DNA of 63,269 nucleotides, the filler included, from Rhabdomonas costata (Eukaryota): the NCBI GenBank assembly GCA_019059605.1. It is 43 parts of 43 records of this genome, joined end to end, with 100 filler letters (N's around TTAATTAATTAA, not from the genome) between each part and the next. Parts side by side here need not be neighbours in the genome. Positions count along the whole stretch, not along the records: positions 45,678 to 47,051 come from JAHMHO010017875.1; 42 more parts are not named here. The stretch is one strand, 5' to 3'. Shown piece after piece: positions 8,845 through 63,269 of the stretch. The notes under the pieces were generated by a model. That model was not told where the DNA came from. It searched no databases and worked only from the letters and a program-made list of their open reading frames with translations. The number at the start of each line of letters is the position of its first letter. Positions within the stretch are counted from its first letter, which is position 1. The position numbers were made by a program, and so were the translations under genes.

Positions 8845-9709
8845 GTGGGGTGGTGTACGGGTTGGGGATCCCACTGGCTGCCGTGGTGGTCGTTCACCTC
8901 TATATGCTCGTAACAGGTACTGTTTGTTCGTGAGTGAGAGCGAGAGGGAGAGAGACGCCACAGGGGCCTGAGAATGGAGGCTGGTGGGGCGCTCACCTCC
9001 CTTCCGTACCGAACAAAGTGAGGAACAAACGTAGTATAGTGTCGGGTTTGGTGTGCAAGGTCAAGCAGAGCGCCTCTGTACATGTGCGTATGTCTGTGTG
9101 TGTGTGTGTGCGTGTGTGCGTGTGTGCGTCTGTTCTACGAAGTAATGTCCCACATAGTAGTGCTCTACAAAGTTTTGGGAGGTGGCTTTTTGACCCATCC
9201 CCAGGAGATGGTGGGGAAGCAACGCGCGTTTTTGTTGGGTATGGAACGAAGCGCGCGTCTGGTCTGGAAATTTGTGCCTTATTCCGCCTTGTTTTTGGGA
9301 AAACCTCGATTCGACCGTTTTTAACTTCCATTGAAAGTTTTTTTTGCCAACGTTTTTCTTTTGAGCGCTGTAACGGGTCTCACATGGGTCAAAGGCGGGT
9401 TCATCTGGGTCATCGACTTCCGGAAATCCCTAGTTTACGTTTTTGAGCTCGCGGATGCTCAATTGCGTGGGCTTTTCGTGGGTTTGCACGGGCCGACGCG
9501 TTTCGGCTTCTGTTTACGCACTTATCGTCATTCAACCTGCTGGCAATGGATGATATGCCTTTCCCAGACCGCATCATGGCGTTTAAGGTCTTCACCTTCC
9601 TCATGGCCGGGTATCGCAAGGAGCGGTGGTTCTGGGAGGCCGTGGTGATGCTGCGCAAGATGGCTATGGTGTTTATCATAGTATTCATCACCGACCACAA
9701 GCTGCAGAT
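8845..9709 (+). CDS. Multi-pass membrane protein of the protist FLxxGYxxxxWxWExVxxxRK (TRP-like C-terminal) family; exons about 8845-8915 and 9568-9709
   Basis: VVYGLGIPLAAVVVVHLYMLVT|DRIMAFKVFTFLMAGYRKERWFWEAVVMLRKMAMVFIIVF; phase-1 GTACTG...CCCAG intron. Confidence 0.8.
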
Positions 9710-14447: not shown

Positions 14448-14620
14448 TGGTTCATTTCAGCCTTCGGCCTTGCCTTCTCTTCCCCTTTCTTTCTGTTCTT
14501 TCTGGATGGACCAGATGCCTCGACAAGTGGATCCCCTCCTTTTGTCGAGGCATCTGGTCCATCCAGAAAGAACAGAAAGAAAGGGGAAGAGAAGGCAAGG
14601 CCGAAGGCTGAAATGAACCA
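14448..14620. repeat. Terminal fold-back inverted repeat (79-bp perfect arms, 15-nt loop), probable library or amplification artefact
   Basis: 14448-14526 is the exact reverse complement of 14542-14620, directly at the contig end. Confidence 0.9.
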
Positions 14621-17285: not shown

Positions 17286-17412
17286 CTTTCCCCAACGTGA
17301 ATTTGGGCCGATTTTATCTGTGCGTTAGGAAACTGAAGTGGAATTTCTTTCCCCAACGTGAATTTGGGCCGATTTTATCTGTGCGTTAGGAAACTGAAGT
17401 GGAATTTCTTTC
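17286..17412. repeat. Perfect 61-bp tandem duplication
   Basis: ctttccccaacgtgaatttgggcc...gaagtggaattt at 17286-17346 is repeated exactly at 17347-17407. Confidence 0.95.
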
Positions 17413-17864
17413 TTCTTTTTATGTTGTCTTTTTATGTTCAGCAACGTTCACGGAATTATGACGCACCCGCATACACAGAGTTGTCGTCGCTAACCAACAG
17501 CTGGCGGCCGCCGCACAGGGGTAGCCCAAACACTTGTCGAATAACCAAACGCATGAATACGGACACCCCCCCCCNNNNNNNNNNNNNNNNNNNNNNNNNN
17601 NNNNNNNNNNNNNNNNNNTTAATTAATTAANNNNNNNNNNNNNNNNNNNNNNNNNNNNNNNNNNNNNNNNNNNNGGGGTTTGGTAAGAGAAATCGCAACG
17701 GCGGTGACCGAGGGAGGAAGGGCGACCCTGCAGGCGGATACGGAACCCGAAAATGGGGGTACTTGGTACTTGGTAATTGGGCATACAACATAGGACAGAC
17801 ATGCGCATTTTCCAAATCCAGGGAGAAGCTAACACACACAACACAACACACACACACACACAAC

Positions 17865-23579: not shown

Positions 23580-24323
23580 TGAACACTGTGCTGGATGAGA
23601 ACAAGAAGCTGTGCCTGGTCTCTGGGGAGATCATCCAGATGAGCAAGTACATGACGATGATGTTCGAGGTCGAGGATCTCGCCGTGGCCTCCCCCGCCAC
23701 CGTCAGCCGCTGTGGTGTCTGCCTCTCCCCGCGAGCGTGCGTCTGCGCATTGTGATCTCTGGTCGTTGTTCACACACAAGCCGCGCATACAAGCAAAGAT
23801 GCATGAATGTGGAGGTCGGTATTTTTAGATCCAACGGTCTACATGCTAACGCGGCCAACGCCCGTAACTCAGAACCCAAAGAATATCCAACCATGATTTC
23901 TCTGGACCTCTGTCACAGGCTATGCATCGCAAGCCCGTGTCTTGGGCAAAACCCTAGTAGGAAATTGTGATAAGTGCCGGTGAGTGAAGATTCGCTCGTC
24001 CGTGGGACAGGAAGGGGTTCGAGTTTTCCATCATCTCCTCCTCATCTTGCCAAGGGATGATCTACATGGAGCCCTCGACCAACGTGGGCACGGCGGCGCT
24101 GATCAAGTCCTGGCTGCTGCGGCTGCCGAAGCCCCTGCAGCCCTTCGAGGCGATGCTGCGCGAGCTGCTGGACACGTACCTCCCGCCAATGGTGGAGTTC
24201 GTGCCTCGGGAGTGCAAGGAGTACATCCCCACCAATGCTCCCAACCTTGTGTTCAGCTGCTTCCACATCCTGGACAGCTTCCTGAAGCCCCTGCTGCCCG
24301 TCCCCATCACCGCGCCCATCCAG
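23580..24323 (+). CDS. Axonemal dynein heavy chain, AAA2 region; exons about 23580-23714 and 24055-24323
   Basis: [51 protein letters not shown]. Confidence 0.97.
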
Positions 24324-25073
24324 GCGCGTGTTTTTCGTCTGCGTGTGCGTGTGCTTTTGTTTTTGCTTGGCTCTTCCACCGTCAGAAGCATTGGTCCATC
24401 CAAATGAGACACCGAGTCATTGGATAAGCGAACTCGCAGGTTGCAAAGTAGACCGAGGGAAAGAGCCGAACACCACCGGATAAGAACAAGCGCAAGGACT
24501 TGAACTTCCAAGTCCCAGTGATAACTAAGGGCGCCAAGAGAGGGCGACGTGGGTGCGGCTCTCCGTGGTCAGAAATAATCAAATGAGGATCGCTGAAGAA
24601 GACGAGAAGAGTGGCCTCTGGCAAGGCAGAAGTGCTCCCGAGTTTCCTAGAACTGCGGCGGTATGCGCCATTGAGGTTTCCCAAGTTTTCCTCCCTCTAG
24701 CAGCAGAGGGAAGTTTTAGCACAAGCAATGCGTCATGCACGCTTTGTCGCGTTCCAACCCGGAGAGGGTTTTCATTCCCCCCCCCCCGTCCAGATTTCGG
24801 ACGCATTTACTAAGGAGCTGGGCTGAGATTCGAGACAGCAGACAGCAGTCAGTCCGCAGCTGCCCGCCCGACCTTGGTTTCACACACACACACCTACATG
24901 CACACATGCACACATTCACGCATGCACGAACAAACACCCCCCNNNNNNNNNNNNNNNNNNNNNNNNNNNNNNNNNNNNNNNNNNNNTTAATTAATTAANN
25001 NNNNNNNNNNNNNNNNNNNNNNNNNNNNNNNNNNNNNNNNNNGGGGTTTTTTACTGTGCAATGTTGTCTGCAG

Positions 25074-25177: not shown

Positions 25178-26534
25178 GTGCAGATTCCTGGGACCCGGTT
25201 CTGCTGCGCTGGCTTGGCTTGGCTTGGCTTCCTTCGTTCTTCCCGCTGTCTTTCCCCAGTCTGCCTTTCCTCGACTTATGTGTGGGTGAAACTGACATTG
25301 GGGTGGGGGTGGGGGAGATAAGTGGTTACCAGTGAATAATTTTTCCTATTGGAACACACATCAAAAGATTCGTTTAATTCCCCGCCCCAGGTCACCTTCC
25401 CGTCCCAGGCCGCCCGCTCCGGCCGACGGGTCGCAGGCCTTCCTCCCTAAACTTTTGTCATCCTACTCGTCCATCCCAGCAACCGGTTAGTTCGAACCAA
25501 AAAAATGCTCATCTCGGGAAAGCATGAACAGTTCATCTTACCCCCTTACACTGAACTATAATGCTGGTATCAGTTAGCCTTTTCAGGTTAAAATAGCATC
25601 AATTCTTTTGGTCAGTTGGACTGGTCTGTCACCACAAGTACTACCCCCCAAATGGGCCTATGCGTGGAAACGCGGTGCTGATTGATCCTTTTTGGTTCCC
25701 CATAGCAAGCCATGACAATCGATGGTCTGATCGTGCGTGTCTGAAGGTTGTTTTTTTACCCCCATTTCAAACCTGGTTGCCGTGCTCTATAGCCTTAAGA
25801 GTACTTCCAGCCTCAGCCGCTCCTTTCTTTTTCCAACAGTCCCGAAGCTTTGCCGAATCTTTAGAGACGGCAATGAGCCCGACCATCCGCAAATCTCAAG
25901 GGATTAAAGGTGCGCCTCCTGCGTTGAAATTGTTGTTTTATTTCGATTTTTTCCGTGTTGCTTTTCGTCATGTGTCCAGTGTCACCGTCTGCAAGCAAGT
26001 ACTTGTTTGAGACAATCCTACATGTTTGCCTGAACACCATACACAGAATCATCAATTAGATTCCATCGATCGAAGAGGGCGTCCTTGTCCCTTGTCCGAA
26101 GTCTTGTGTCGACACGTATTCGGTATTTGTTGGCCCCGAGTGAAGGAGAAAGCACTGTGCCTGTGGTGCATCCTCTTGTGTGCAGCTGAGCGGAAAGCCT
26201 GGCGAGCAACGGCGGATTGGAATATGGCCTGTTTCAAAAGGGAGAGTTTCCCACACAACCATCAAATTGTGGGAACTCCGACGAAGCACACACAACAAAG
26301 TGAATAGTTTCCTTCACTTGCCTTTAAGCAATCACTGTCAGCAGCACACTGTGGGCAAGTCTCAGGAGTGGAGTTATTTTTCTGGGATAAAACGGCAACC
26401 CCATTCACCCACAAANNNNNNNNNNNNNNNNNNNNNNNNNNNNNNNNNNNNNNNNNNNNTTAATTAATTAANNNNNNNNNNNNNNNNNNNNNNNNNNNNN
26501 NNNNNNNNNNNNNNNGGTTGGAATCTTTCCTTTC

Positions 26535-27516
26535 GACGGGCACGGGCACGTGACGAATCTGTTTAGGACAGCCCACCACGTCGAAAGGAAAGATTCCAAT
26601 CACACAAACCACACGGGTGAAGCAACACAGCCGCGTTGAGCATAAGGACCTGCTTCACAGGCACAGTCCGGGGCACGGGCACCGTGACGACCTTCTCCAC
26701 AATCTGCTCCTGGATCGTCGGGACGTCGCGGTAGCGCACGCACTCAACTGGGACGGGCACGGGCACAGTCTGCGGCACGCGGACCTCCACAGGGGTGGGC
26801 ACGCACCTGTCGACGATGCGCTGGACCGTCTGTTGAACCCACACACGTTAGTGAGTCAAAGGCCGCTGACGCAGTCTCAGAAGGAATAAACGAAAGCGCA
26901 AGAGAGTGCACACCCGGGTCACGGGGCAGGGCACGGGCCGGGTGACGACCTTCTGCACGGGGACGGTCACCACCACCTGCTGAGGGCAAGGCACCTGGAC
27001 GGGGCAGTCCACTGTGCGCTCCACCACCTTCTGGACGTTGTAGGGCACGGGAACCTCCACAACCTTTTTGACACAGAAGGGTTTTCCAAGCAACGCATAA
27101 AGGCATGTGCTTTGCACGCAACGAAGCCACTCAGATACTCTAACTTTACCTTGTCCACGTTGAAGGGCTGGGGCACCTCCACGACCTTCTGCACGGGATA
27201 GGGCACCTGGACGCACTGCCGCACCTTGACCTCGACCGGGACGTCCACCTGGCGGCAGACGACCTTCTGCACCGGGTAGGGCACCTGCCGGCACACAACC
27301 TTCTCCACAGGGTACGGCTGAGGCACCTGCACCACCCTCTCCACGGGGTAGGGCTGAGGAACGTCAACGAACTTCTGCACCGGGTAGGGCACCTGCACGC
27401 ACTGCCGCACGCGCTTTTCCACAGGGTAGGGCACGGGGACGCACTTCTCCACACAGACCTCCACGGGGACCGGGACGTCAACCTGGCGGCAGACCTCGAC
27501 GGGGACCGGGACAGTC
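26535..27516 (-). CDS. Articulin-like pellicle/epiplasm protein; exons 27516-27150, 27064-26915, 26829-26650 and 26558-about 26535
   Basis: Tandem roughly 12-aa VPVPxxVEKxV repeats; three GT-AG introns keep frame, one with a CACTAAC branch-point-like motif. Confidence 0.92.
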
Positions 27517-27822: not shown

Positions 27823-27885
27823 GAAGGGGAGTCCGAGGCCGGGAAGCGGCCAACCAACACATCTCAGGACTACTTTCATACCCAA
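27823..27885 (+). repeat. Truncated copy of the dispersed repeat also found at 35650-35950 (minus strand)
   Basis: tccgaggccgggaagcggccaaccaac(a/t)catctcagga(c/g)tact..catacc is shared between two unrelated contigs. Confidence 0.9.
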
Positions 27886-28905
27886 ACCCNNNNNNNNNNN
27901 NNNNNNNNNNNNNNNNNNNNNNNNNNNNNNNNNTTAATTAATTAANNNNNNNNNNNNNNNNNNNNNNNNNNNNNNNNNNNNNNNNNNNNTTTTGTGGGTC
28001 CACTTCGAGGTCTTTGAGGACTTCCAGGTCGTTCGGCGGCCTGAAATTGAGCGATTCCAATGACATTGATGAGCGATTCCATTGAGCCCGGCTCCTAGGG
28101 AACAACAACAACAACAACAATAACCTGATTATCTGCCACCCACGCAACGCCAAAAGTTCCCGTCTTGTTATGGTTACGCCCACTTATACATCATGCATGG
28201 ACAGAACTCCCTGTACAGAAGCAGCGAAACAGTGTTCCAACACCAACAGCAAGGGGTTGCCAGCCACCAACAGCAAAGGGTTGAATCCCCGTAGAGAGTG
28301 CAGTGCTATCCCTCACATGTTACCGGCCCTCTGTCTGTGCATTTGTTTCCAGTTTAATCAGCCGCGTGAGGCTGCGGGAAGAACGTCGACGCGAACCGAA
28401 GAACCTGAGCATCACCGACACACCAGAAATTTCCCCATATGAATATGATTCTTATTCTGAGTGGGGCGTCAAAAATTAAGGTGTCATCGTTTGCAGGGAC
28501 AGCTTTTTTGCAGAAAAAATTCCGCACTTCTTGCTATTTTTTGCCAAATTTTTCATATGTGCATATAAATGCATGGCTTGAAAAAGTCGGTTTGCCTACA
28601 GACAAACGACAAAGGCTCAATTTAAAAAGATTCCAGTGAGGTTCATCCCTGAAGTTTCGTGCGCATCGTCCGAGATCCGCACTCCACCCCGCCGTGATGC
28701 TGGAGAAATTTCGAAATTACGCGAGCTGATGTCCCCATGTTACATGGGGTCGGGCCAGGGTTGCCTTCAGCCTAACGCCTAATTGAGACAAGCATGGTAG
28801 AACGTTTTCAAACCCGGGTATTCTTTTCATTTTCTCACAACTAAGTGTGTTTTATGCTGTGAGGAGAGGTAACTATGGCGTCACGTTTTGGGGTTAGGTA
28901 TCCAG

Positions 28906-29097
28906 AGCTACCCCGACGTGCTGGACGTGGAGGTGGTCGAGGCTCTCGGGGGGAGGTACACCACCATCCCTGAGCTGCGGCCCGTGGTGCGGGTCTCCGT
29001 GCGGGGGGCCAGCCAGTCCACCGTCACCCCGCAGCACAGCCTGGTCAGGCCCCAGTGGAACGAGACCTTCCGGTTTCCTATCCGCGAGCCCAAGAAG
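28906..29097 (+). CDS. C2-domain exon
   Basis: VLDVEVVEA...PVVRVSV....QST......LVRPQWNETFRFPI is a typical C2 pattern. Confidence 0.85.
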
Positions 29098-29673
29098 GCC
29101 TGCCGCCCCCTTCTTCCCATTGCGTCCCTCGCACTCTGTTGGAGCGTTTGGTTTGCTCCCGTATTGCACCAAAGTAACACCAACATCAGCTTCCACCCCA
29201 TCCATGTTGGCTCGTCAACACCATCGCAGTCCAAGTGCAGTTTTCCAATTTTCTGCGAGCTTCAGCACTACCCACGCTGCCTTTTGCCAACGCAGTTGCT
29301 ATTGGTGAAAGTTAACTTCCTTCTTACAGGGATCGTATTATCCGCTCTGCTATACCCACACAANNNNNNNNNNNNNNNNNNNNNNNNNNNNNNNNNNNNN
29401 NNNNNNNTTAATTAATTAANNNNNNNNNNNNNNNNNNNNNNNNNNNNNNNNNNNNNNNNNNNNTTGTGTTGGGAATCTCTGCTTCTGACTGTGGCTGCCT
29501 GCATGTTGACGAAGGTTTACGAAACAAACCTGGCTGCTTGGTTACGCATGCCAACAACGGGATTTCACTCTTTTCTCTTCTGGCTGTCATCTTGAAAGGA
29601 TTAGGAAACTGCCCAAATGACTGATTCAGCACAGAGATGCCACTTGGCGGGGGGTGGGGATGGAAGTACCCAC

Positions 29674-30492
29674 CAGCCTCTTCTGGGTTGTCGACCTCAG
29701 TCACGTCTCGGATCCCAAGGTCAGAAAGGTTGACTGAGAAGCTGCCGCCCCAGTTGAAGTGGACGTACCGGTGACCTAACTGCTGCCAGAACGGTGTGGG
29801 GCGAGTCCTGAGCCCATCCCGGACAAGGCCACCTGCAGCGGTGAGGTCAAAGTTGCAACACTCCGTGTCCACAAGATGGACTTACCGTCTTCAGAGGTTG
29901 CCTGCGAATTGAGATCACTCTCGGGTGGTAACACATCTTGGGGACAAATCCTAGGAAAACTCCGCTTCAGCCAAGTCAGCACAGGTGACTGCTTACGGCT
30001 GAGGAAGATTCACTGCCTACAAGTTTTTTTTGGATGACGGATCTCCGGGTTAGTATTCGAGCCCCGGGCTAATATTCGAATATGAACTGCAACTGCCGTG
30101 GAGGAGCCCCCACTCGCACAAATCGGCCCTGCCACGATGTCTGTTGATGCAGCCCGTAATTAAGTCACGGAAACGTGGCCACTCCGTGTAAACACCAGAT
30201 GCCTACAAGAGAGCGCGCCTTAATAAAGTTGTATCCTCTGATCGGCCCATTGGGTTTCCACACCTGAAAGAGAATATACGCGGTATGAAGGGGAGCAAGG
30301 ACCTGAGGAGATCACCCCAGCAAGGAGGTGAGTCTCAATCCCCACCTTTGCCAGGAAGCCCTCCACGGCCTCGGGGCATCGCGAGGAGTTGGACAGAATC
30401 AGCATCCGTACCCCCCGCGAGGCCAGCTCCCTGAGACAGGGGTTGGCTTCGGGGTGGGCCAACGAGCCGTCGTGGAGAACGCCGTACTGATC
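29674..30492 (-). CDS. HAD-superfamily subfamily IIA hydrolase; exons 30492-30303 and 29832-29674
   Basis: DQYGVLHDG...LILSNSSR...VISSG|GLVRDGLRTRPTPFWQQLGHRYVHFNW; phase-1 GT-AG intron. Confidence 0.9.
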
Positions 30493-30937
30493 CTGCAGGT
30501 ACGCACGTGGACATGCTTGGGGGAGGGGGACGGTGTGACGGAAGCGCCGACGCTTACACATCCCGCGGCTGAGCTCAAACCCAGCTAGGCGCCACCTCCA
30601 AACTGAAACCGCCATGTTCCTGTTAGTTCCCGTTGGGGACCACTCCACCTTCTCTGAATGAGTGGCGAGCAAAAGGCGTGGCGCAGGTGCTCCCTAAGCA
30701 AAGGGAACGACGCTCGCAGAGGGGTGCCGCATTCGCTCCCTATCTCAAGGGAAGCTCAGGCCCGTGTTCCCGCCACCGCATCGCTCCGAGAACGGATGCA
30801 GTATGGATCCCAGAGACCTGGTTCTTACACAACAACCNNNNNNNNNNNNNNNNNNNNNNNNNNNNNNNNNNNNNNNNNNNNTTAATTAATTAANNNNNNN
30901 NNNNNNNNNNNNNNNNNNNNNNNNNNNNNNNNNNNNN

Positions 30938-32912: not shown

Positions 32913-33659
32913 GTATGTAGGGAGCCCTCCCCCCGCGGGTCATTAGGTCATTTTTCACTTCAAGTTCCACTCAAGTCCCTCCATACATTGAACATCAAGT
33001 CCGAAAAGCAAATTTCGAGAAAAAAATTCGGTTTTTGTGGGAATTCACCAAGTGAGTTGGCACTTGAGCTGCATGTGAGTTGGCGCCTAAGTTGGACCTG
33101 TTGGGCACTCCCCCCTCTCCCCAGATGGGTCTCATACCCGCTGGTCGAAACCCGCGTTTCCAGCAGAAGTCGCGAAAACGCAGGCTAAAAAAGTTATCTT
33201 TTCTTGTATATGCCAATGTTTTCCCGATGTGCTTGTGACATTATGTGTAGTTTTTCGCTTCTCACTTTTGACATAAAAACGCCATTTTGGCTAAGCTTGG
33301 AAATGGAGCCACGCAGATGCGTAATTTGTCATTTGTCCGTCCTTCAGTGCTCGTGTCCACCGTTGACCCGCCTCCTCGTTTGGACAGCATCTCAGGGTTG
33401 CAGCCCGGGAACTCTGCGCCGGGTGGCGCTTAACCTTTCAGTCCCATTTCACGGTTTCTTTAATTCCTGCGGATACGCAGTCGTCTTGCATTGTAATTAA
33501 CGAGGGGTTTTTTCTCAGGCTTCTTCCACAATTTTCCCGCGTAGGTCTATGCACCGCTTTTCCTCCGTTTTATACGCTCCTTCGTTGGGTGGTTCGAACA
33601 CCTTCCCACCGAGTACGGCTCTATCGAGTTTAACATCGACCGCTGGTCGTGCTGTGGGA

Positions 33660-33784
33660 TGCTGCAGGTCACCGTTTCTCAGCAAGGCAAGGGAGGTCCT
33701 TGGCATGATGCTCCTGGGAGATTCTACCATGAGCATCATGCCAAGGACCTCCCTTGCCTTGCTGAGAAACGGTGACCTGCAGCA
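33660..33784. repeat. Terminal fold-back inverted repeat (54-bp arms), probable artefact
   Basis: 33660-33713 is the reverse complement of 33731-33784 at the contig end. Confidence 0.9.
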
Positions 33785-35649
33785 CCCCACACCNNNNNNN
33801 NNNNNNNNNNNNNNNNNNNNNNNNNNNNNNNNNNNNNTTAATTAATTAANNNNNNNNNNNNNNNNNNNNNNNNNNNNNNNNNNNNNNNNNNNNGTGTTTG
33901 TTGTAAAACATGTGCTGCTTGCACACGCTGCGGGCCTTGAAAAGAAATTGCCATTGAGCGCGCAATGGGTTATAATTTCATTCGTTTTGTGAACTATCCT
34001 TCATGGCTGATGGTTGTTTATCGCTGTAAAAATTGAGCTTGGGTAGTAATTTGATTACGGGATTAAAACAAAAATCCACTCCAAGAGGATCGTTTTGTAA
34101 CGGCAGAGCTTTCCTTTTGGTACTCCCCCAGGGCAGGTGTCCCATAACCCGTTTAAATTGCGGGGGGCTCCTCCCGTGTCTGCTGCCGTGGGGACTTTGA
34201 GGGACAAAGGTTCGTGGACAGAGTGGCTATCATCCGGGGCCAGGTGTGTCAAAGCCTGGCCCCATTCTAGGAGACCATGGATTCTCTCTCTAGCTTGTTC
34301 CGTTCCGGAAGGGCCTTGAAATAGAATACTACCAAGACAACCGAAAGCCGGCACAGCACAACGAGCACGAGGTCACGGGCACAGTTGTGTCGAATTTTAT
34401 CCCGGTTCCTTGCCGAGAATCTGGCGAAAGGTGGTATCAGGTTTGCAAGCCGGTTATTGACACCCCCCCTGAAGGGCGATTGGTTCAGATGCGCGGTCCC
34501 CGCTTGGCTAACGACTGAAAGCACGTTGGGCAGCCACCACCGTGCATTCTCGGAAGCTAAACTCGTTCATTCAAACCGCCAACAATAAACGACAAAAACG
34601 ACATATTTTTTCGAAAAAGAAAAGAATCTGGTGAGCGTGGAGATCAATAAGCCTTACCCCTAATCCGAGTACAAACTACTTCAGGGTGTAAAACCGTTGG
34701 TTTGATTTCATCGGTATTTCCAATGCAGAAAACCCGCTGTGTAATGTCTGCGGACTTGCCGCTTTAGCGTAGCATGGGACGCAAGGAGAGTCCAGGGGTA
34801 TGGATTTTAGAAGTGTTATGCAATGACATCGAGTGGACTTTATTTGCCTCAACAGAGATTTGGATGGGAGGTGCCGGGATTGGTTATGTCAAGCCATCAC
34901 ACACACACACACTCTCTCTCTTGTTTGTGCTGCACACCGAGAGCATTTCCGGCGCTTTGGGATAAGAAACACTGCCAAGGAGACAGGATTAAAGTTAAGA
35001 AACATTCCCCGTTTGGCACAGCCCTCAGTATATAATCCGAACAAAAAAAGGAACCACCTTCCACACAGAAGGTGTGACAAAGTCAAAGTGCGCATAGAGG
35101 AAACCTGCATGCACCCCAACAGAGGCCAATTGGCAACGCAAACGCCTTCCCCCTCTTCCCCCTCCTCCGGCTTGACTCACACTCACAAGAATGCCTTGCA
35201 ACGCAACGCCCACCGCACAAAACAACACAAACTCACAACGTGACGCAACGCAACGCAACACAACCCCNNNNNNNNNNNNNNNNNNNNNNNNNNNNNNNNN
35301 NNNNNNNNNNNTTAATTAATTAANNNNNNNNNNNNNNNNNNNNNNNNNNNNNNNNNNNNNNNNNNNNTTTCACCCCTGGCCGGTCTGCATTGATTTTCTG
35401 GTTTGGGAGGGTTTGGGGGTTTTGAAATCTTTGGCTGACATTGAGTTGAACTTTGAGGATTTTGACCTCTTCGCCGGAAGGAAATTACAGTGAACATTGA
35501 ATTGATTTGGACTTTTTCGGTCCACATTGAACTTTGAGGTTTGTGCAACCCTGCTTCGAGAGCGCCATGTCTTGTTTCGGCTGTTTTTTTTGTGAGGGTA
35601 ATTGTTGTTGTTGTTGACAGTTCTTTCTCTTATCGTTGTTCTGCCAGGG

Positions 35650-35950
35650 GTTCTACCAGGTGGGATAATCTAGCCTCTTCAGCCGGCCTCGAGAACCTCA
35701 CCAATCGTCGGGGGCCTCATCGGAAATGGGGGGATAGGACCACTTGCTTCGGCCCAAAAACTCGCCCAAACTCGCCCTATTCGCTGGGTGACATCCGCCA
35801 TGGTCACTCCCGGACCGGACCGGACCGGACCGGAGATCTAACTTGACCTCAGAACTCGAGCTAGCGTGACGGGTTGGGCCTCATATTTGGTGGTATGGGA
35901 GTACTCCTGAGATGAGTTGGTTGGCCGCTTCCCGGCCTCGGAGTCCTTCT
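35650..35950 (-). mobile_element. Dispersed non-autonomous repeat with a 5S-rRNA-like core and a (CCGGA)n tract
   Basis: Shares about 60 bp with 27823-27885; the minus strand from 35907 reads GGAGTACTCCCATACCACC...AACCCGT...TCGAGTTCTGAGGTCAAGTTAG; the lower boundary is approximate. Confidence 0.6.
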
Positions 35951-36526
35951 CTACGCCCAGCGAACAGTTCCCTGCATCCTTTTTTATCGCGGTGACTCCG
36001 AGGAGTGTGTGACCGGCACGAGAAACCAGGCGTACTTCGATGTTCTTCACAGCTTGCTCGCGGTCGGGCTGGCCATGCTCATGCTGAGCGGTGAGTGGGT
36101 CTCGCACCTGCAGACAGAGTTGACCGCGGGGAGAAGGGCGCAGCAGTCTATAAAACAATGTCATTCAGCTGAAATGCCATATATCAATGAAATGTTTGGC
36201 AGTTCTGGCTTTGGCGAAGTATTACACTTCACGCCCCCTCCCGACTTCCGGAAGGCAAAGCAAGAACTGGCCACCACGTTGGCGACAGCAAATAAAACCG
36301 TCGTGACGTGAAAGCCAAGAAAACCGCAACACCACACGTAAAAAAGCCAAGAAAAATGGAAAGAGCGATGTCTGAAATGCGTGCCAGACAAACCACGACA
36401 TACCACGAAATTTATCAGCCAAGCATTTATTTTGAATCCTGCGGCTGTGTGCGTGTAATACTTCTACATGCAGTGCAAACCACTGTCTGATAAAGTACAC
36501 AATAGGCGGCCAGCAGGTGTGGCATT

Positions 36527-36576
36527 TCTTTTTCACCCTATTACTTCAATACGTTGAAGTAATAGGGTGAAAAAGA
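36527..36576. repeat. Perfect internal palindrome, 23-bp stem with a TACG loop
   Basis: tctttttcaccctattacttcaa-tacg-ttgaagtaatagggtgaaaaaga. Confidence 0.95.
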
Positions 36577-36994
36577 GCTGCCAACAGGAATTTTCTTGCA
36601 CAAGACTTGTCCCTGGATCCTGGCCCAGGCCTTTGACCTTTTGCCCGCGCCACTAGATTCTCTCGCATTTCACAAATATAAGTACAGAGATGCCTGGAAG
36701 TCACCAGTTCTTCAAGCCAGCAAATTCCTTCCAAACCCAACNNNNNNNNNNNNNNNNNNNNNNNNNNNNNNNNNNNNNNNNNNNNTTAATTAATTAANNN
36801 NNNNNNNNNNNNNNNNNNNNNNNNNNNNNNNNNNNNNNNNNTTTGTGTTTTAATACCGGCATATCCTTTCATGTTTTTAAGTTTCGGAACTTCGGGCTTC
36901 TTGTGTGCTCAGTCAAAAGGTGAAACCCTTCCTCGCGGGAGCGGGTTCTTGGCATCCTTTTGCTCGGAGTTTGTCCAGGACAAGTTGCGCAGCG

Positions 36995-37215: not shown

Positions 37216-40200
37216 CGTTCCCGGGGTCCACCTTGCGGGGATGTGGTGCCCGGTAGGACACCTTGGGGGACCGGGCCTTTAGTTGCGCCTCGCACGCATG
37301 CTCGCCATTCCTTGTTCCGCTGAGTACAATCGCGTGAATCCCAGTGGCCACCCCCACGCGATGGCTCTCGTTCCGACGTCCTTTTGTTTAACTTGAATAC
37401 ACGGTCCATGGGCGCAAGGGAAAATTAGAGAGCAAAGGGTGAGGTCGACAGTGAAAGCAAACGTGCACAACAGTAGCAAAGTCTGTCATTAACAGTGATC
37501 CCGGAATTGGATCGACCAAGTTTTGTTGGTTTTGCGAATTGGAATCAGGGGAATCAGGGTGCAGATGGTGTTGGAACCCATCGAAGTCGCTGCCCGGGCA
37601 CATCGATGCGTCAGTGGTCACTCTGCGTCAGAGGGTACCCCAGCTTGCGGGCTCTCCTTCTTTCCTGAGCCCTGATACAGCACACATCACGACCCAACAT
37701 CCCCACCAATCTCGTCCAAACACGAAACCAAGAATTCCATTCGCCGTTGCAAGAATGCCCACTAACCCTATCTTACCCACGTGCACCACCACCACGGAAC
37801 CCCGACTTGCATTATTCCAACCCCAACTCAAGATTGCCCAAACCCAGAACTCGTGAGGTACAATCTCATCAAAATTTTCATATTTTCAGCTAAAAATTGA
37901 AGTAAATATTGAAATATTGATTTTTTTGAAAACATCCAATGTTTTTTTCAAGAAAAGTTCCAAATTTTTCACAAAAAATTTGTTACCAAAGCTTTTCTTT
38001 TCGTAATCGCTCTCTCGTCGCCCCTCCCGCCCTGTCACTACGTCACAACCTCGGTCTTGTCGTCACTTACACCCAGCCTCCCTTCTTGATGGTGATGGCG
38101 GCGGCGAAATGAACCCCCCGCTTTCATTGCCGATAATTCGCAACTGAGCCGCTGTTTTATTCTAGTTTTTCCTGCTTACCTTTATTTTGTTCAGCAGCTT
38201 GATTTTGCTTTCCTTNNNNNNNNNNNNNNNNNNNNNNNNNNNNNNNNNNNNNNNNNNNNTTAATTAATTAANNNNNNNNNNNNNNNNNNNNNNNNNNNNN
38301 NNNNNNNNNNNNNNNCCCCAACCGGGCACCTGCTGGCTCCATTGTTCCTCTGGGGAAGTCCTGGTCGGGGGTGGGGCCAGAGTTGCCTTCATCGTAACGC
38401 CTAATCGAGACCAGCATGTTAGACCATGATCATGATATGGATTCGAGCCGACCTCGGTGCCTGACAGTATCCCAGCTCAGTGTATTAGCATGTCCGCTGC
38501 TTGGCGGTTTATGGATTTTCCCCTCTGCAGCGGCGGGTTCACAATATCAGACAATCGTACCTGATATGGTTGGGTTGTCGCTGCTGTTGCAGTGTGCTGG
38601 GTGACTCTGTATCGAACGTGACGTGTTTGTTTGAGAATATTGTGCCAATAAACCGCCCTTCTCTCTTGGGCAGTGCTGGAGGTGACACCGACCTCGCGTC
38701 CAGATGCACCTGCGAGGGCAGCGAATTCTGGCGCCGGCTGCGCGTTAAAAAGGCACCCTTGCGACCGTCCTTTTTCTCGTTTCCTTTCTCTCATTCGGTT
38801 CCCAGTTTTTCTTCGTGTAGTCCGCTTCTGTTCTTCTTTCGACACCCTTGTGCAAAAGTTCTTCAATAGAGCGCTGTAAAGAGGGTCCAGAGGGTTGGAG
38901 AAGGGTGGCGTACGTAGAATTAGCTATGAAAAGCGTTTACCCCACCGAAACCGTTGGACAGAATTGTACTGCAAGAGTTCTCAGGAAAATCCGTTCGTAG
39001 CGGTTATCTTGGTAGGTGTGTGATTTGTATATTCTGCACACGTTGTGCCTTTAGTGCCCACCTCGCCTCGTATTTTCACACATGGCTCTCACTGGCCGGC
39101 TGATCTGCTCAAAAAGAAAGGTCACATGATGAGTTCTCAGGATGAGCTCAAGCTCTGGCTTTTTCCCAGCAGGGTCGCTCGAACGACATTTTGTCATCCC
39201 AGTTTGAGATCCGAGAACGACTCGTCGTGATGGGGGGTGGCGGGCATCAAAACCTGCTGGATTGCTGCCAGTGGTTTTTGCACGACAAATTTAGCCCAAT
39301 GGTTCTCCAAAAAGGAATAAAATGATAACAGTCAGCATGTTGTTTTTCCGGTGTGGTTGGCAGCCATAGCTCTCCTCTCACAAAAAGGGGATCAGCCATT
39401 TCGTGTGCTGCAAGTGCGGGCAGCGGTGAAAGAGCCGCTGCCCCAGGGACGAGGTACCAGACTTCCCCAGTCGTCGCGCCATGCGAGAGCTTTGCGGAGT
39501 AAAGGGACCTACCTGTCTTTCTCACCCTTCCACTAGCTCCTAAGCGCACCCCTGCTCCTCAAACAGAAACCACAAACATAGCCAACCTTTCTTGCCACAT
39601 TGGGCCACCCACCGAGCAGGGTTGTTCTCCTGTTCTTTTCACCGTTATTACAATGACGCAAGCGTGGGTATGTGTCCCCCCCCCCCCCNNNNNNNNNNNN
39701 NNNNNNNNNNNNNNNNNNNNNNNNNNNNNNNNTTAATTAATTAANNNNNNNNNNNNNNNNNNNNNNNNNNNNNNNNNNNNNNNNNNNNGGGGTGGTGGTT
39801 CCAATATAGTGGATCAGAGGGCTTCGCTGCATGCTCTCTTCGATGCGGCCGTGGCACATACCGTTATCTTTTTTGTGTCTTGGGAAGGCATCCAACGGGC
39901 CTGGGAGGGCTGGGTCGTTTACCACGTCCAATGGGAATACCAGAAAGGAAACGGCTTGTGTGCTGTGTTTTCTCTTTTCTCACCATTCGTTTTGATTTGC
40001 TGTGCGCGTTGTGCGGTAGCATGTGGGCTGCATCTCGATGGGGCGTTTTGTCAGACGACATCCGGTCGCCATGAAAGCTTTGCCAAAAGTGTCCCTGGGA
40101 CCTCACCACCCCAAAACTACACAGACCGTTGAGCAAAAAGCTGTGCGCTTGGACCACAGTGTTGTTTCCGCGAGGGCGAGGGGAGGGGGGGTCCAGAAAG

Positions 40201-41080: not shown

Positions 41081-41084
41081 AGTA

Positions 41085-41155
41085 GGGTGGCAATGGACGA
41101 TACCCCACTGCGCCTTGGAGGTGCTGGCGCAGTGGGGTATCGTCCATTGCCACCC
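41085..41155. repeat. Terminal fold-back inverted repeat (30-bp arms), probable artefact
   Basis: 41085-41114 is the reverse complement of 41126-41155 at the contig end. Confidence 0.9.
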
Positions 41156-41606
41156 CACANNNNNNNNNNNNNNNNNNNNNNNNNNNNNNNNNNNNNNNNN
41201 NNNTTAATTAATTAANNNNNNNNNNNNNNNNNNNNNNNNNNNNNNNNNNNNNNNNNNNNTGTGTTGGGAGTGTTTTGGTTGTTGGTGATTTTCAGGCCCA
41301 TCACTTTCCTGCAGGGGAGGAGCTTGCACCGGCCCAGGTCTGATTTGTCCGATGATGCTTCTTTCTACCCTTCGCAAAAAAAAAAAGAAGAAGCTACTCG
41401 CCTTTCTGGTGTTACGTGGGGTTGTGTTGACGGACGTCAGTATTGCTGTGGCGCTGGTGTTCGACCTCCTGAAGCGTTAGAAAACGGAGAAAGTGGAGAA
41501 AGTGGAATGTGGAGAGCAGATCCAGCCAATGGGTTTCTCTTGGCTCCACCTAACCCTAAAATTGGATCGCGCTCTCGCACTCCCTTCTCGTGTTCTCTTG
41601 GAGTAG

Positions 41607-42248
41607 GCTCTGCTGAGACGGGTGCGGCAGGAGTGGGAGCTGCTGCGGACCTCGCTCCCCTCGGAGGGCTTTGTGGTGAAGGCAAGCAGCGGTAACCTCA
41701 GGCAACTCAAGGCCCTGCTGGCGGGAACCCCGTATACACCCTACAACCACGGGTTTCTTTCTACTACCCCACTCTCACTTTGGGGAAGGAAGAGAGGTGG
41801 GCATGCACTCTACCTGTTTACAGTACAGTCGCGGTGCAGATGGATTCTTGTTCACGTTTGTAATGCACGTATGTTCAGATGATTTGGTCGGCATGCCATC
41901 GGTGAATATCGCAGGGCGTCGGTCCCAACGATGCGTTTCCTCACACCGCACCACAACTTCCTCCTTCCCGCCTGCCCTTTGCGGGCACCTGCCACGGCGC
42001 CTTTATTTCTCTTGCAAAAACATCACGTGTGCTTTTGCCTCACGTTTCTTATCAGATTGTTTGGGTTTGACCTGTTCCTGCCTGAGCAGTTCCCAGCCGT
42101 TCCTCCAGAGGTATTCTTCCACAGCTACGGGGTGCGGCTGAACCCCAACCTCAACCACAGGGATGGCTCTGTGTGCCTCAGTCTATTGGGAACGTGGGAC
42201 TCCCCTTTCATCCACGAGAGGTGGTCCACAAAAGCTAACCTTCTACAG
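41607..42248 (+). CDS. Ubiquitin-conjugating enzyme, UBE2O-like UBC domain; exons 41607-41752 and 42056-42248
   Basis: VRQEWELLRTSLP...TPYNHG|LFGFDLFLPEQFPAVPPEVFFHSYGVRLNPNL..DGSVCLSLLGTW, with the catalytic Cys present. Confidence 0.92.
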
Positions 42249-43644
42249 GTCTCTTCTTGGCACGGATAATTGCAGCGTTTCTTCCCTACCGTTTTTATCC
42301 TTCTTTGTGTTACCTTGAGTTGCATAAGTACCCCTCCTTGTAGTGAGTGAGCGGAAGTCCCAGATTATCAGATAGAAAAAAGGGCTGTTCAGACTATTTT
42401 TCTCGTGTGACGTCAAGCTTACGACCATTCCATTAAATTCTTTCAGCAAGCACAGCTTGTGAATACACGATGACTCGAAGCGCATTGGCTTCAGCCCCCC
42501 AAGAGAGGGTGATTTGATATGTATGGTTTCCTATGTACTCTTCTTCTTCTTCTTCTTTGCGTTTTCGTTGTGTTTCTTCCGGATGCCGTTCATCGTGGTG
42601 AAGGTGATGCTCATGGACCCACCCCAAAACCNNNNNNNNNNNNNNNNNNNNNNNNNNNNNNNNNNNNNNNNNNNNTTAATTAATTAANNNNNNNNNNNNN
42701 NNNNNNNNNNNNNNNNNNNNNNNNNNNNNNNGGGGGTTGTTAGCGCGAATCCTTCCCCCCACGCAGCAGCTGCCGTTTTGGAGGGCATCCTTCGTCCCTT
42801 TTCTGCGACCCTCCTACCCTCTCTGTATGGCCTTGCCCCCTTTCCATGATTTGTGCAAACCAAAATGGATTCCCCCGTCTTTCCCTCCCAAAAAAAAGAG
42901 AAAAAGAGCGAGCGAATGAGAGAGAGAGACAGAGAGAAATTGGATCTGAGCATGCAGGCAAAGTGAGTTTAAGCTTCGGTATAAGAAGATGAAGGGCGGG
43001 ATTTTTCGGTATTAGGGAGAGGAGATCAAAGAGAGCCCGGCATTGCAGCCTTTTTGTTTTGGGATGAGTTGTACTTTGTTCAAACTTTGGTTGGTTCCCA
43101 CCGCTGCTGCAACAATAGCTGTGGATGCGTGGTCTTGTCTTGCTTCGGGGAAGGATGATGCGCCATGGGAGACCTGTTGACTCGATAAGAGATCCATACC
43201 TCACCACGTTTGCTTCACAACTTGAGCACTGAAATGCCACTTGTCCCCACACGTAGACTCTCGCGAGGAAATGCCCCGTTGGGGCCGAAATTCGCCTATG
43301 GCCTATGGGCTCATGAGCAATGAGAATAGGTTGTTGGCCCAACTTGTATGAGCCGTGATGGTGTGGGTGGTTCGATTCTTCCGGGGTCCTGGTGGGAAAG
43401 CCCCCTAGACGTCCTATTCTAAGTTTTTTTTGCCGGTCTGCTTTCCCTATTCTTCAGGGTTTTGCCTATGCCCTCTTTTTCAAAGAGCCACTGGACTGCG
43501 TGCACCTTTCACCTCAACGCTTCGAAGTGGAATCGGTTGTGAAGTGGGAAAGCTCAGTACTTCACTTTCCTCGATTATCTTGCCCCCACCGTTGTCTATT
43601 TTCGGAGACTTGCCTTCGGATCCCAGAGGATCATTGCAATAGCA

Positions 43645-45260: not shown

Positions 45261-46185
45261 GTGCGCATCCCTCGCCGATATGACGAGTAACCCCGCAAAG
45301 GAGCGAGGGCCCAGGCAACTCAATGAGCATGGGACCTCAGTAGGTTCAAGCCTTCGATTGAAGTGCAGAGATAAAGTTATGATGAAGCGATCTCAGCCCA
45401 AAAGAGAGTGGTTGTCCCCCTTCGCTTCACTCTACGCCGAGAATCTTTTGGTCAGCACCCGCTTAACTTCTGCCCGTAGGTGTTTCTTTTGTCGAAATCC
45501 GGCGGCACTGAATGTAATTTGCTCTCTGTGCCGCTTCTGTACTTTGCCCAGCTCCCCACCCCTGTACCACAACCCACNNNNNNNNNNNNNNNNNNNNNNN
45601 NNNNNNNNNNNNNNNNNNNNNTTAATTAATTAANNNNNNNNNNNNNNNNNNNNNNNNNNNNNNNNNNNNNNNNNNNNGTGTCAGGGCTTGTGCTGTGGGT
45701 CGATGTGTCGTTGCTGTTAGGTCCGTGGGGTTCATGCTGCGTTGGTCTGTGAGTCGAAGGGAGAGTGTGGGCAATGTCAAGCTGAGTACCATGGTCTGTG
45801 TGTTAGTGTGTGTTCTTGGGCTCTGTGTGTGGTTGGAGGGTGGGTCGTGGCATTTCGTGTCTGAGGTTCTGTTGGTTGCTGGTGGTGTGTGTCAGTGCTT
45901 TGTCAGTGCTTGTGTGTGTCAGTGTCAGAGGGGCTACGTGTCAGGATCTTGGGGTTACGTGTGAGGGTTTCGTGTTCTTGGCTTCTGGGTGTCATGGTTT
46001 GTGTCTTTCTGTGTCAAGGGCTGTATCCTGGTCTCATGATGTTGGTGTGTAGGGCTTCGTGTTCTTGTTTCTTGGGGTGTGGTGGTTGGGGTTGGGGTTG
46101 GTGAGGTAAGGCTAAGGGTAAGCGTATCAGCATGACTCTAGGGGAATAGAGATGCTAAGATGCTAAGATGACCCTAGATGCCAAG

Positions 46186-46957
46186 ATGCCCTCCTACTCC
46201 GCTACGCTGCGTTCCTTGCACCTGATGCCTTTACTCCTCCTACTACGGATGGATCGCTACGCACCCATCCTTCGTGTATTCTATGCGTAGGGTATACTCC
46301 GATGCATGACATCCTCCACTTGGGGACACGTACCACTCTCTACTACGGCATGTCGACAAGCACCATGCCTTCGTTCCTTCCACCCTCTATGCCTTCAGAG
46401 TGAGAAAGAGGGTGTAGGGATGATGCATGACTGTACTATGCTTGTGTGTTGGATGCTTGAGGGGTGTTTCTTGCCTTCTTGAGGTCACGGTTTCTGAGGG
46501 TAGGGTGGATTTTAGGACGTAGGGGCATTTCTATCTGCGATGCCCTCTACTACGGATGGCTATGAGGGGATTCCTACCGCAGGTGCCTTGACCTCTACTT
46601 CTACGGGCATGCCTCCTGACGTCGACATGCCCTCCGATACCCTAGTGATGGAATACCCGATGCAAGGCACAAGGGGACCCAGATAAAAGGTGTGATGTCG
46701 GTCGATGCCTACGTCATCTCCCTCCTAAATGTGATGGTTCACTCACTCCACCAGCCTAAGCTGCTTACGTTCGTTCACCAAGACGTCAGCATTCTCAGGT
46801 CTTCGAATGCTTCCTCTGTATGATGGTTCGTTACGCCACCATAAGGTGCCTCCACTCACAGAACCCGAACTCAGAAGACAGAAGAAGGAACTCAGAACTC
46901 AGACGTCAGGATGCTCAGGCCTTCGCATCCTTCCTCTGATGTTGGTTCGTTCCGCCG
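46186..46957. repeat. Non-coding array of short hairpin cassettes (two families)
   Basis: CTACTAC-stem-loop-stem-TTCG units at 46237, 46337 and 46593; AGACGTC-stem-loop-stem-TCCTCTG units at 46781 and 46901; no ORF of 60 aa or more in any frame. Confidence 0.8.
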
Positions 46958-47967
46958 CTAATTTGATTTGGTGATTTGCCAGGATACCATCAACAACCGT
47001 GAATAACTCCCCATCCCTGCAAATGCAGGGAAACAAAAAAACCCACACACCNNNNNNNNNNNNNNNNNNNNNNNNNNNNNNNNNNNNNNNNNNNNTTAAT
47101 TAATTAANNNNNNNNNNNNNNNNNNNNNNNNNNNNNNNNNNNNNNNNNNNNGGGGTTGGGGGCGTCGGGGTCGTCCAGCGCCACCCCTCACTGCCCGGGC
47201 TGTGCGAAGCCCCTGTGCCCTCGGGGAGAGGCCTGCGGGTTCTCGCTGCAGAGCCATGTGCTGCAGCACTGCCACACCGCGGCGCACCCGGAGTTTCCGT
47301 GCCGCGCTGCCAAGCACTGAGTAGGGCTTTCGGTGACCTTGTCTATAGAGAAGACAAATGGAGAGAGAGGGGGGGGACACTGTTCCTGTGCTGTCTCGGA
47401 CTCAGTCGTTGAAGGCTCTTCTTTTGAATGCCTTGCTGCAGACTCGTTTGATGCTACGACATCCGCAAACATTTGCATTTGGCAACGTTCCCCCTCTCCA
47501 CACAGATATTGAGCTCACAAATAAGTCGCTCGATGTGCTTAGTAGGTGGATGCGCACCGCTGCGTGAGTCCCAGGGGATGCAATGCAAAGAAAAATATTG
47601 GGTTGTTATCGTTAGAAAGCAATCCGGGATCAACGCATAATGTTCACAGAGAAAGTGTGCTCCCAATGGGGGCAATGTGTCCCTGATGCCCCCCATCGCC
47701 AAACATTTTTAAGGAGCAGCATATCCAATTTCTCAGTTGGAACGTGGCTACAAAGCCGAACACACCAAAATTGAGGTTCAATTTTGTCTAAACTCGTCCT
47801 TTTTCTCTCATCCTGCCATTCCCCTTTTGTTATACCCTGGTCGCTACCTTGTCAGCTGCTGGGTTTGTGTTCCGCTGCTAATGGCCGATGCTGCACTTGA
47901 GGCGAGCCGGTCCACCTGTGAAAGCATCTTTAGGTATAATGGTGCAGCACTTCGGCCGTAAACCGTT

Positions 47968-61948: not shown

Positions 61949-62835
61949 CTTGGCTGGCGTGGCAGACCGTTCCATTGCTCTTCACGCGGTCCGGAGGGCA
62001 CACGAACTTCACCCCATCCTGAAAGAGAGAGAGGAGGGGGGGGCAGCGGGGGACTGCAGAGCCCTCGCTATTCATCGGAAACAAGACACTGGAGCAAAAA
62101 TCCTTACACCTGAAGTGCACTGTTCCGGTGTAAGGTAAGAAACCCATTGGACCCCCCGAAAACGGATTTGGTGAACTCTTTCAAAATTCGGGAAAGAACC
62201 CACTTATCTCTTAGCCTATTGTTTCGATTCAGTCAAAGCAAGCTTCAACCGCGCGTGAGGGAAGGAGGAGGAGGGGGGTCATACGCAGTTTTCAGCGATG
62301 TCGCAAGGTCCGGCGGCGGGGCGGCACTGCGTCAGTGTCGTGGCCGGTAGGTCGGGCGGGCAGTAGGCAGAAGTCCCGGTGCAGAACTCAGACTGGTCGC
62401 AGTCGCCTAACAACACGTGCGTAATTAACGTAACCTGATCGTGTGCGCGTGGGCATCGACGGGGTTCACGTCTGACTCCACGGTTTGAGACTGAACGCCA
62501 CCTTCCGCACCATACACTCATGAACCACACAAACTAGGCTCTTGCAACTGGTCAGTTACCGGAGACAGAGCCGACGGAGTACACGCTGTTGGCCCAGTAG
62601 CCTCCGCAGGTCTGGGTGGGATCCGCATAGCATTGCATGGTGCAGGCTGTGGACTCCCCGTAGCTCCCGAAGGTGTTCCCACAGAAGCACTGAAAGCCAT
62701 ACTGCACCCCGGCGTACAGGTAGCCCGCAGACTGGCACAGGTCGATGCAGGACTGCGGCGTGGTGAAGGAGGCGCTCACGTCGTAGCTCAAGTCACGGGA
62801 GCTGGAGTCGGCGAAGCAGTCCACGTACACGATAC
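61949..62835 (-). CDS. Extracellular protein with a WSC domain followed by disintegrin-like repeats; exons 62835-62560, 62406-62285, 62018-61949
   Basis: YVDCFAD...TPQSCIDLC...YAGVQYGFQCFCG...CTMQC...QTCGGYWANSVY (WSC); GDCDQSEFCTGTSAYCPPD...CRPAAGPCDIAENC|DG...CPPD (disintegrin-like). Confidence 0.92.
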
Positions 62836-63269
62836 CTGTGGGGAAAGAGAGCCCATATGTATGACGCAAGTGCTTCCGAACATATCACACACAGCCGAGA
62901 ACGCTCGCCTCGAGGGGTAATGAGCGGGGATTCCGCACTGCCCACTGACGCTGCCCTTTTTCTCCACAAACCACGAAACAAGAATGGAGCTGTGCCCATT
63001 TTTTCGCCAGAGAGCGAGCCAAACAGCTCGACCCTCCAAAAGACTCTTCTTCAAGGGCAGAAACTTTCCGATCCGTTTCGGGAGGAGCATGCGGTTCTCG
63101 CACGCTCTGGGCTATGTGGAGCAGCCACCCATGGAATCACAACCAGCGGTAACAGCACCATGGATGGTCGCATACTCACACTCACACTCACACTCACACT
63201 CAGCGAGGAAGGACGGCGAAACCGCACACCCAGTCCAGCAGTCGAAAACTAGGCGCCGGCCCCCAACCC

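Follow-up and report, generated by a model that had tools for sequence, protein, structure and literature searches.

The element analysed here is a short hairpin cassette present as two close copies, and a third, much more diverged one, on a single contig. Its features are listed below, with coordinates counted along the window, which is the whole stretch of DNA that was analysed (63,269 nt).

45678..47051, no strand assigned: contig with the cassette, 1374 nt, between N44-TTAATTAATTAA-N44 linkers
46150..46960, + strand: strand-biased patchwork of degenerate short repeats that holds the cassette, from word counts and repeat families
46694..46764, + strand: copy 0, a third and much more diverged unit directly upstream of copy 1, from Smith-Waterman alignment
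46781..46837, + strand: copy 1 of the 57-nt unit, from repeat search, BLAST, masked pattern and alignment
46788..46811, + strand: hairpin 1 of copy 1, 10-nt loop on the stem AGCATTC/GAATGCT
46823..46842, + strand: second, weak hairpin of copy 1, 10-nt loop on a 5-bp stem (ATGGT/ACCAT)
46859..46903, + strand: degenerate period-7 run (CAGAACT)n, 6.6 copies with 71% matches by Tandem Repeats Finder (TRF), one of the direct-repeat families
46901..46956, + strand: copy 2 of the unit, 56 nt, with 1 base fewer after TCCTCTG
46908..46931, + strand: hairpin 1 of copy 2, 10-nt loop on the stem AGGATGC/GCATCCT

The window consists of 43 contigs, each about 1,373-1,386 nt long, with the same linkers between them, and its GC content is 43-54% throughout. 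Neighbouring contigs are unrelated, and any feature that seems to cross a linker is an artefact of the joining. The cassette contig is without coding signal: there is no open frame longer than 112 codons on 45678-47051, none of the 19 frames of the contig gave a Pfam match above cut-off, and neither rRNA, nor a transposase, nor a terminal inverted repeat was found on it. Across the window, 148 open frames of at least 110 codons were found, and 7 of these had a Pfam match at E 0.001 or better, among them the following.

23988-24404, + strand: dynein heavy-chain AAA lid (Pfam), in agreement with axonemal dynein by Atlas search
28873-29361, + strand: C2 (Pfam)
30223-30693, - strand: HAD hydrolase (Pfam)
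41883-42266, + strand: ubiquitin-conjugating enzyme, UBC (Pfam)
49098-49676, - strand: BRCT (Pfam)
62555-62884, - strand: WSC (Pfam)

The frames with Pfam matches are exon-like fragments of eukaryotic genes, from a flagellate eukaryote, and at this sampling the window is mostly non-coding. Repeats of several kinds are scattered over the other contigs. A 61-nt unit is repeated perfectly in tandem at 17286-17412 (2.1 copies, 100% matches), and several contigs carry (AC)n/(TG)n microsatellites (9083-9133, 17832-17862, 51418-51478 and 52418-52453). Matches of 32-56 nt with 87-91% identity link different contigs (27828-27882 with 35892-35946, 28746-28801 with 38368-38423, and 26235-26266 with 58147-58178); two of the three pairs are in inverted orientation, and these short matches may be small interspersed repeat fragments. 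A degenerate repeat with a 36-nt period (71-83% matches) at 27148-27494 lies inside overlapping open frames on both strands and is a possible coding repeat.

The first 430 nt of the cassette contig (45678-46110) are strongly G+T-rich on the + strand, with TGTCAGTGCTT repeats, and a (TTGGGG)n-like run lies at 46072-46101. The patchwork that holds the cassette includes a (AGATGCCA)n run at 46150-46190, and 17 families of short direct repeats were counted in the 952 nt around the cassette. Its word content is strand-biased. GATGC occurs 12 times, roughly 10-fold over the remaining window, against a single GCATC; CTACG occurs seven times, roughly 21-fold over the remaining window; ATGCC occurs nine times on the + strand; and ACGTC recurs at 46618, 46711, 46783 and 46903. 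Near the contig end, 60 nt downstream of copy 2, another perfect 7-bp hairpin with a 4-nt loop (TCCCTGCAAATGCAGGGA) lies at 47014-47031 and is followed by an A-rich run.

Copies 1 and 2 are 86% identical over 57 nt (E 3e-12 by BLAST within the window). Their similarity can be divided into a repeat pair at 46781-46818 and 46901-46938, with 87% identity and 120 nt from start to start, and a tail pair at 46820-46837 and 46939-46956, with 89% identity. A degenerate pattern in which the five variable positions were set to N matched copies 1 and 2 only in the window, and matched in none of 100 shuffles. The initial annotation had described two paralogous units of about 57 nt lying 120 nt apart, and the sequence bears this out exactly. 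One unit was duplicated locally, and the spacers drifted apart after the duplication, partly by growth of a 7-nt microsatellite; the (CAGAACT)n run now occupies most of the spacer between copy 1 and copy 2.

Over the 57-nt unit, the alignment of copy 1 with copy 2 contains seven substitutions and one 1-nt indel. Four of the substitutions fall among the 14 stem positions, one in the loop and two in the tail. Conservation between the copies is therefore 9/10 in the loop and 10/14 in the stem, and it is 14/14 in the two 7-nt flanks. The four stem substitutions combine into a C-G to G-C swap and a U-A to G-C swap, both exact. In the RNAalifold consensus each copy has the 7-bp stem, and the two swapped pairs are scored as changed on either side yet retained; in the two-sequence tally, 2/7 pairs are doubly changed and none is broken. 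Alignment and RNAalifold thus agree with the earlier description of four stem differences forming two compensatory pairs within a perfect 7-bp stem and a 10-nt loop. Transversions account for six of the seven substitutions, in the stem and outside it alike. Both stem swaps are double transversions, for which a G-U intermediate is impossible.

The likelihood of such a pattern arising by chance was calculated exactly for seven substitutions distributed independently and uniformly over 56 sites. The probability that at least two pairs are compensated and that the stem carries no uncompensated change is 1.2e-4, to be read with the caveat that the pattern was picked from a very large scan, in which a 1e-4 event per duplicated hairpin is expected somewhere. 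The same probability for five substitutions in 38 nt is 1.1e-4. For a single unit, the swap pattern exceeds chance and is locally non-random. Pure coincidence would require four independent substitutions to land, by luck, as two complementary pairs within a chance hairpin of a duplicated segment. Perfect 7-bp hairpins are commonplace in the window, at about one per kb, the preference for transversions is shared by stem and surroundings, and rare patterns are expected somewhere in a scan of this size. Against coincidence stands the exact probability itself; the crowding of at least four of the seven substitutions into the 14 stem sites has p = 0.058 on its own. We consider this explanation very improbable.

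Hairpins of this kind are more frequent in the window than expected. Maximal stems of at least 7 bp with loops of 3-12 nt number 54 in 59 kb, compared with 35.3 in simulated sequence (maximum 44 in 30 simulations), and there are 77 seven-bp hairpin windows, compared with 34 in shuffles. Perfect stems of 23 and 30 bp are found among the inverted repeats of the window. This excess of perfect inverted repeats points to some DNA-level or assembly-level source of palindromes at work, and part of the excess of long palindromes sits at contig ends, where it is a possible assembly artefact. Three contigs end, to within a few bases, in a long near-perfect palindrome: 14448-14620 (173 nt, 95%), 33653-33791 (139 nt, 95%) and 41082-41158 (78 nt), the last of which holds the perfect 30-bp stem. 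These may be real fold-back DNA that broke the assembly, or chimeric fold-back artefacts. The 23-bp stem, also perfect, has a 4-nt loop and is located in a contig interior at 36520-36583.

The hairpin of copy 2 has a further symmetry at the level of DNA. Its 24 nt form a near-palindrome without spacer, in which 10/12 dyad positions match (an inverted repeat with 12-nt arms, 83% complementary, and 0 nt between them). The single loop difference gives copy 2 the centre AGGCCT, with the axis between AGG and CCT, and the dyad thereby reaches adjacent bases, which cannot pair in an RNA hairpin. A TC/TC mismatch persists in the loops of both copies. Since a palindrome that runs through the centre of the loop is meaningless for an RNA hairpin, it was counted in favour of an origin at the DNA level.

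This symmetry could also be that of a DNA site bound by a dimeric protein, with one site per unit, as in sub-repeats of a ribosomal intergenic spacer or promoter, or in the subterminal sites of a DNA transposon. Arrays of protein-binding sites contain many same-strand copies of short words, and the 12 copies of GATGC and seven of CTACG would be consistent with such an array. In addition, each unit begins with the palindrome GACGTC or a near copy of it, and the word ACGTC recurs four times. A single dimeric protein would, however, hold its half-site constant, and the paired half-site change would have to be explained by a second, paralogous protein. Given also that the contig has no rRNA, transposase or terminal inverted repeat, we regard a dyad-symmetric protein site as improbable.

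The initial annotation had taken the swaps to mean that pairing rather than sequence is conserved, and had read this as the signature of a functional structured RNA or of a single-stranded DNA or cruciform element. The first part stands, in that pairing is kept between the copies, while the function is without independent support. A structure-selected RNA could be a tandem small non-coding RNA gene, or a repeated cis-acting hairpin in a transcript (untranslated region, intron or spacer); a protein would read the loop and flanks, the stem would need only to pair, and the + strand would be the RNA strand. Several observations fit this proposal. The two exactly compensated pairs have the low chance probability given above, and the loop and flanks are better conserved than the stem, a pattern typical of protein-bound RNA hairpins. 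The core is conserved between units whose spacers are barely alignable by MAFFT. This last observation can be explained without selection on the core, because most of the spacer between copies 1 and 2 is degenerate (CAGAACT)n and the spacers no longer align for that reason. Besides the copies, an older relic at 46246 also has the second hairpin (ATGGT/ACCAT). This hairpin contains G-U pairs that are sensible only on the + strand. Its outer pairs are broken in one row each, its consensus energy is only -3.44 kcal/mol, and its covariation term is +0.06.

Other data are difficult to reconcile with selection on an RNA structure. Only two sequences are informative. Compensatory change under RNA selection is commonly thought to proceed through G-U intermediates, and both swaps are double transversions with no wobble path; the absence of a G-U route was therefore counted for a DNA-level origin. 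The folds are also unremarkable. The minimum free energy (MFE) of the units relative to shuffles gives z-scores of +0.23 and -0.41 on the + strand and of -1.61 and -0.90 on the - strand, and the 276-nt array gives +0.13 on the + strand and -2.09 on the - strand, where the array fold leaves the 7-bp stem of copy 1 unused. The fold is no more stable than that of shuffled sequence. The 1-nt indel and the unequal spacers are typical of neutral repeats.

Searches for a known RNA gave no candidate. No Rfam family matched anywhere in the window at gathering score, which was the outcome of a comparison that the initial annotation had itself proposed, and its statement that the unit could not be assigned to a known family agrees with the empty Rfam, tRNA and snoRNA box searches. 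With E up to 10, the only Rfam matches on the contig were two long non-coding RNA (lncRNA) fragments outside the cassette, with scores of 18 bits (cut-off 37) and 11 bits (cut-off 48). ARAGORN found no tRNA gene in the window, and no tRNA-like Rfam match was present on the contig at E up to 10; a tRNA-derived element was rejected on both counts.

C/D-box snoRNAs are about 60-130 nt long and carry a C box (RUGAUGA) near the 5' end, a D box (CUGA) near the 3' end and a short terminal stem. The exact C box TGATGA is absent from both strands of 46600-47051. Four C-like words with one mismatch occur on the + strand of this interval, and the sole pairing of a C-like word with a D box, 46820..46936, spans 120 nt and has non-complementary flanks with no terminal stem. 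A C/D-box snoRNA was rejected for lack of an exact C box and of a proper box layout. H/ACA snoRNAs consist of one or more hairpins with an internal pseudouridylation pocket; their hinge carries the H box (ANANNA), and ACA or AGA lies three nt from the 3' end. By eye, ANANNA is absent from the 11-nt linker TCCTCTGTATG, and neither ACA nor AGA follows hairpin 2 in either copy; with stems of 7 and 5 bp that have no internal loop, this class was rejected as well.

Further candidates were set aside, the first two on inspection by eye. A spliced-leader reading was dropped when the candidate splice donor in the loop proved to be GU in copy 1 and GC in copy 2, and a Helitron end was dropped when the CTRR end after the hairpin was present in copy 2 only. 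A protein-coding repeat was rejected on two grounds: the 1-nt indel after TCCTCTG shifts the reading frame between the copies, and the longest frame across them, of 79 codons, has no Pfam match and no candidate relative in the protein database. The lack of any independent sign of an RNA gene was counted against selection on structure, and the cassette is probably not a structured-RNA gene. Taking both sides together, a structure-selected RNA in either of the forms described, with a protein reading the loop and flanks of the + strand transcript, is an unlikely explanation.

Additional evidence on the history of the unit comes from copy 0. Its Smith-Waterman score is 36, compared with a mean of 22.2 (sd 3.1, maximum 33) in 200 shuffles, and with cheap long gaps the score is 38.3, compared with 18.9 (sd 3.5, maximum 30.3, n=200). 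Its identity is about 60%, against 86% between copies 1 and 2, and its homology with copy 1 extends some 12 nt past the 57-nt core. What copy 0 says about the hairpin depends on how it is aligned. In the three-copy MAFFT alignment, it pairs at 5/7 stem columns around a 2-nt bulge, one of them with an additional double change, and 19/21 stem cells are then paired, with three pairs doubly changed; this level is reached by 13/500 shuffles, and the copy 0 row of the alignment is insecure. The MAFFT pairing would support an RNA. In an equally good alignment with cheap gaps, copy 1 joins copy 0 from ACGTCA, 17 of the 24 hairpin bases are gapped, and only copies 1 and 2 would carry the hairpin, gained by insertion or inverted duplication. 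RNAfold folds copy 0 into a different hairpin. With the covariance model made from the other two copies it scores 4.7 bits (E 9.7), which was counted against an RNA. Copy 0 is real and much older than the other copies, and it is taken as uninformative on the hairpin, whose presence in it depends on the alignment.

The three units lie head to tail in the same orientation, at 46694, 46781 and 46901, with periods of about 89 and 120 nt. They form a tandem array of homologous units, although TRF did not call it even at a score of 30. The diverged copy 0, together with homology that continues past the core, argues that the units are ageing members of an array, rather than sharply bounded genes.

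Relatives of the unit were sought more widely. A covariance model with 12 pairs was built from the two copies and run over the whole window without filters, a check that the initial annotation had suggested. It recovered only the two training copies, at 98.3 and 93.6 bits; no further copy was found in this 59 kb of assembly, a result that counts against an RNA family, and the next matches were the reverse strands of the two copies themselves and noise at E of at least 0.39. A strict pattern with free stems and a fixed loop and flanks (22 fixed bases) gave no match in metagenome contigs, prokaryote genomes or viral contigs. A looser pattern with 17 fixed bases gave at least 119 matches in metagenome contigs. 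Among the matches listed, none had six or seven complementary stem positions and the distribution was that of binomial chance; they are treated as chance matches.

A donor for the changed arms was also sought. Allowing up to three mismatches, a search of the window for an outside source of the arms that changed in copy 1 returned copies 1 and 2 and nothing else. An inverted match of 13 nt (12/13) links 46611-46623 with 46902-46914. It was given no weight as a source of the 5' arm, because chance alone should give about 0.3 matches of this kind in 952 nt (an estimate) and both segments contain the self-complementary GACGTC.

The initial annotation had mentioned conversion between the arms as an alternative mechanism, and this is now the explanation that we favour, with a probability of roughly one half. 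The cassette would be a neutral repeat whose arms, as those of a quasi-palindrome, have been kept complementary by template switching or arm-to-arm copying, a history that has to be read from two or three copies. On the same even odds, and as part of this reading, copies 1 and 2 would be the most recent pair within a tandem or patchwork repeat that is non-coding and in decay, in the nuclear DNA of a flagellate eukaryote. In this model, the short stem-loop would behave as a DNA quasi-palindrome. Two point changes would arise in one arm, or the arm would be overwritten from another copy. A replication template switch, or copying from arm to arm, would then rewrite the other arm as the exact reverse complement of the first. 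The “compensatory” pairs would arise in one event, and selection on pairing would not be required. One published account describes template switching as capable of fixing stem pairing, with multibase compensatory changes, in a single event (PMC8794818).

The evidence for arm copying is the lack of a G-U route for the swaps, the palindrome of copy 2, and the decaying repeat setting with its excess of perfect inverted repeats, which was likewise counted for a DNA-level origin. The alignment of copy 0 in which the hairpin is gapped and the lack of any sign of an RNA gene were counted on the same side. In both copies the arms are exact reverse complements; this fits a template switch, and is also what selection would produce. 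Interpretation in terms of template switching is challenging in several respects. The persistence of the TC/TC loop mismatch excludes one switch over the entire 3' half of copy 2, and a template switch requires two prior changes within one 7-nt arm, which makes three events where independent substitution needs four. The chance probability of 1.2e-4 and the better conservation of loop and flanks than of the stem also weigh against arm copying, as do the pairing in the three-copy MAFFT alignment and the second hairpin with its + strand G-U pairs. Finally, no donor was found in the window, and the excess of long palindromes is partly located at contig ends. The odds left after arm copying, RNA selection, a dyad-symmetric protein site and coincidence go to something not considered here.

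If the favoured reading is correct, the cassette is an ordinary element, and an example of how DNA-level copying between arms can mimic the signature of compensatory substitution that is commonly accepted as proof of a functional RNA. That would be a warning for scans that trust one or two swaps between paralogues. If the RNA reading were true instead, the sequence would represent a small structured RNA family with no Rfam relative in a poorly sampled eukaryote. The most specific form of that reading is an undescribed family of tandem RNA elements, each of about 60 nt and with two hairpins, in the nuclear genome of a protist. They would act as a small RNA gene or as a protein-binding hairpin in a transcript; the 7-nt flanks and the loop UCAGGYCUUC would be read by their sequence, and selection on the stem would be for pairing alone. 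We consider this form rather unlikely.

The nearest known systems on the RNA side are the tandem small guide RNA genes of protists. Protist snoRNA genes occur as tandem short units with poorly conserved spacers. The cassette shares with C/D-box and single-hairpin H/ACA-like genes its units of about 60 nt and its poorly conserved spacers of similar length; it differs from them in having no exact C box, no pocket-bearing hairpin, no suitably placed ACA or AGA, and no Rfam match. A resemblance to tRNA-derived elements was seen by eye in the tail, where GGTTCG matches the start of a B-box or T-arm motif. Unlike such elements, the unit has no tRNA according to ARAGORN and no tRNA-like Rfam match.

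Parallels with repetitive DNA are closer to the favoured reading. Degenerate tandem repeats, such as minisatellite-like arrays and spacer sub-repeats, share with the cassette head-to-tail copies whose identity falls with age, microsatellite growth in the spacers, and strand-biased words. One difference from these repeats is that TRF made no call, and another is that the 57-nt core is far better kept than the spacer. The remaining comparison is with template-switch quasi-palindromes, as presented by Monttinen and Loytynoja (2022; PMC8794818). Compared with the cases covered there, the cassette has no securely aligned outgroup and no donor beyond the hairpin itself, and a single switch spanning half of the palindrome is excluded by TC/TC. 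What it shares with those systems is arms kept complementary through multibase, two-sided changes, together with transversion swaps that have no wobble intermediate, a repeat-rich DNA setting and an excess of inverted repeats.
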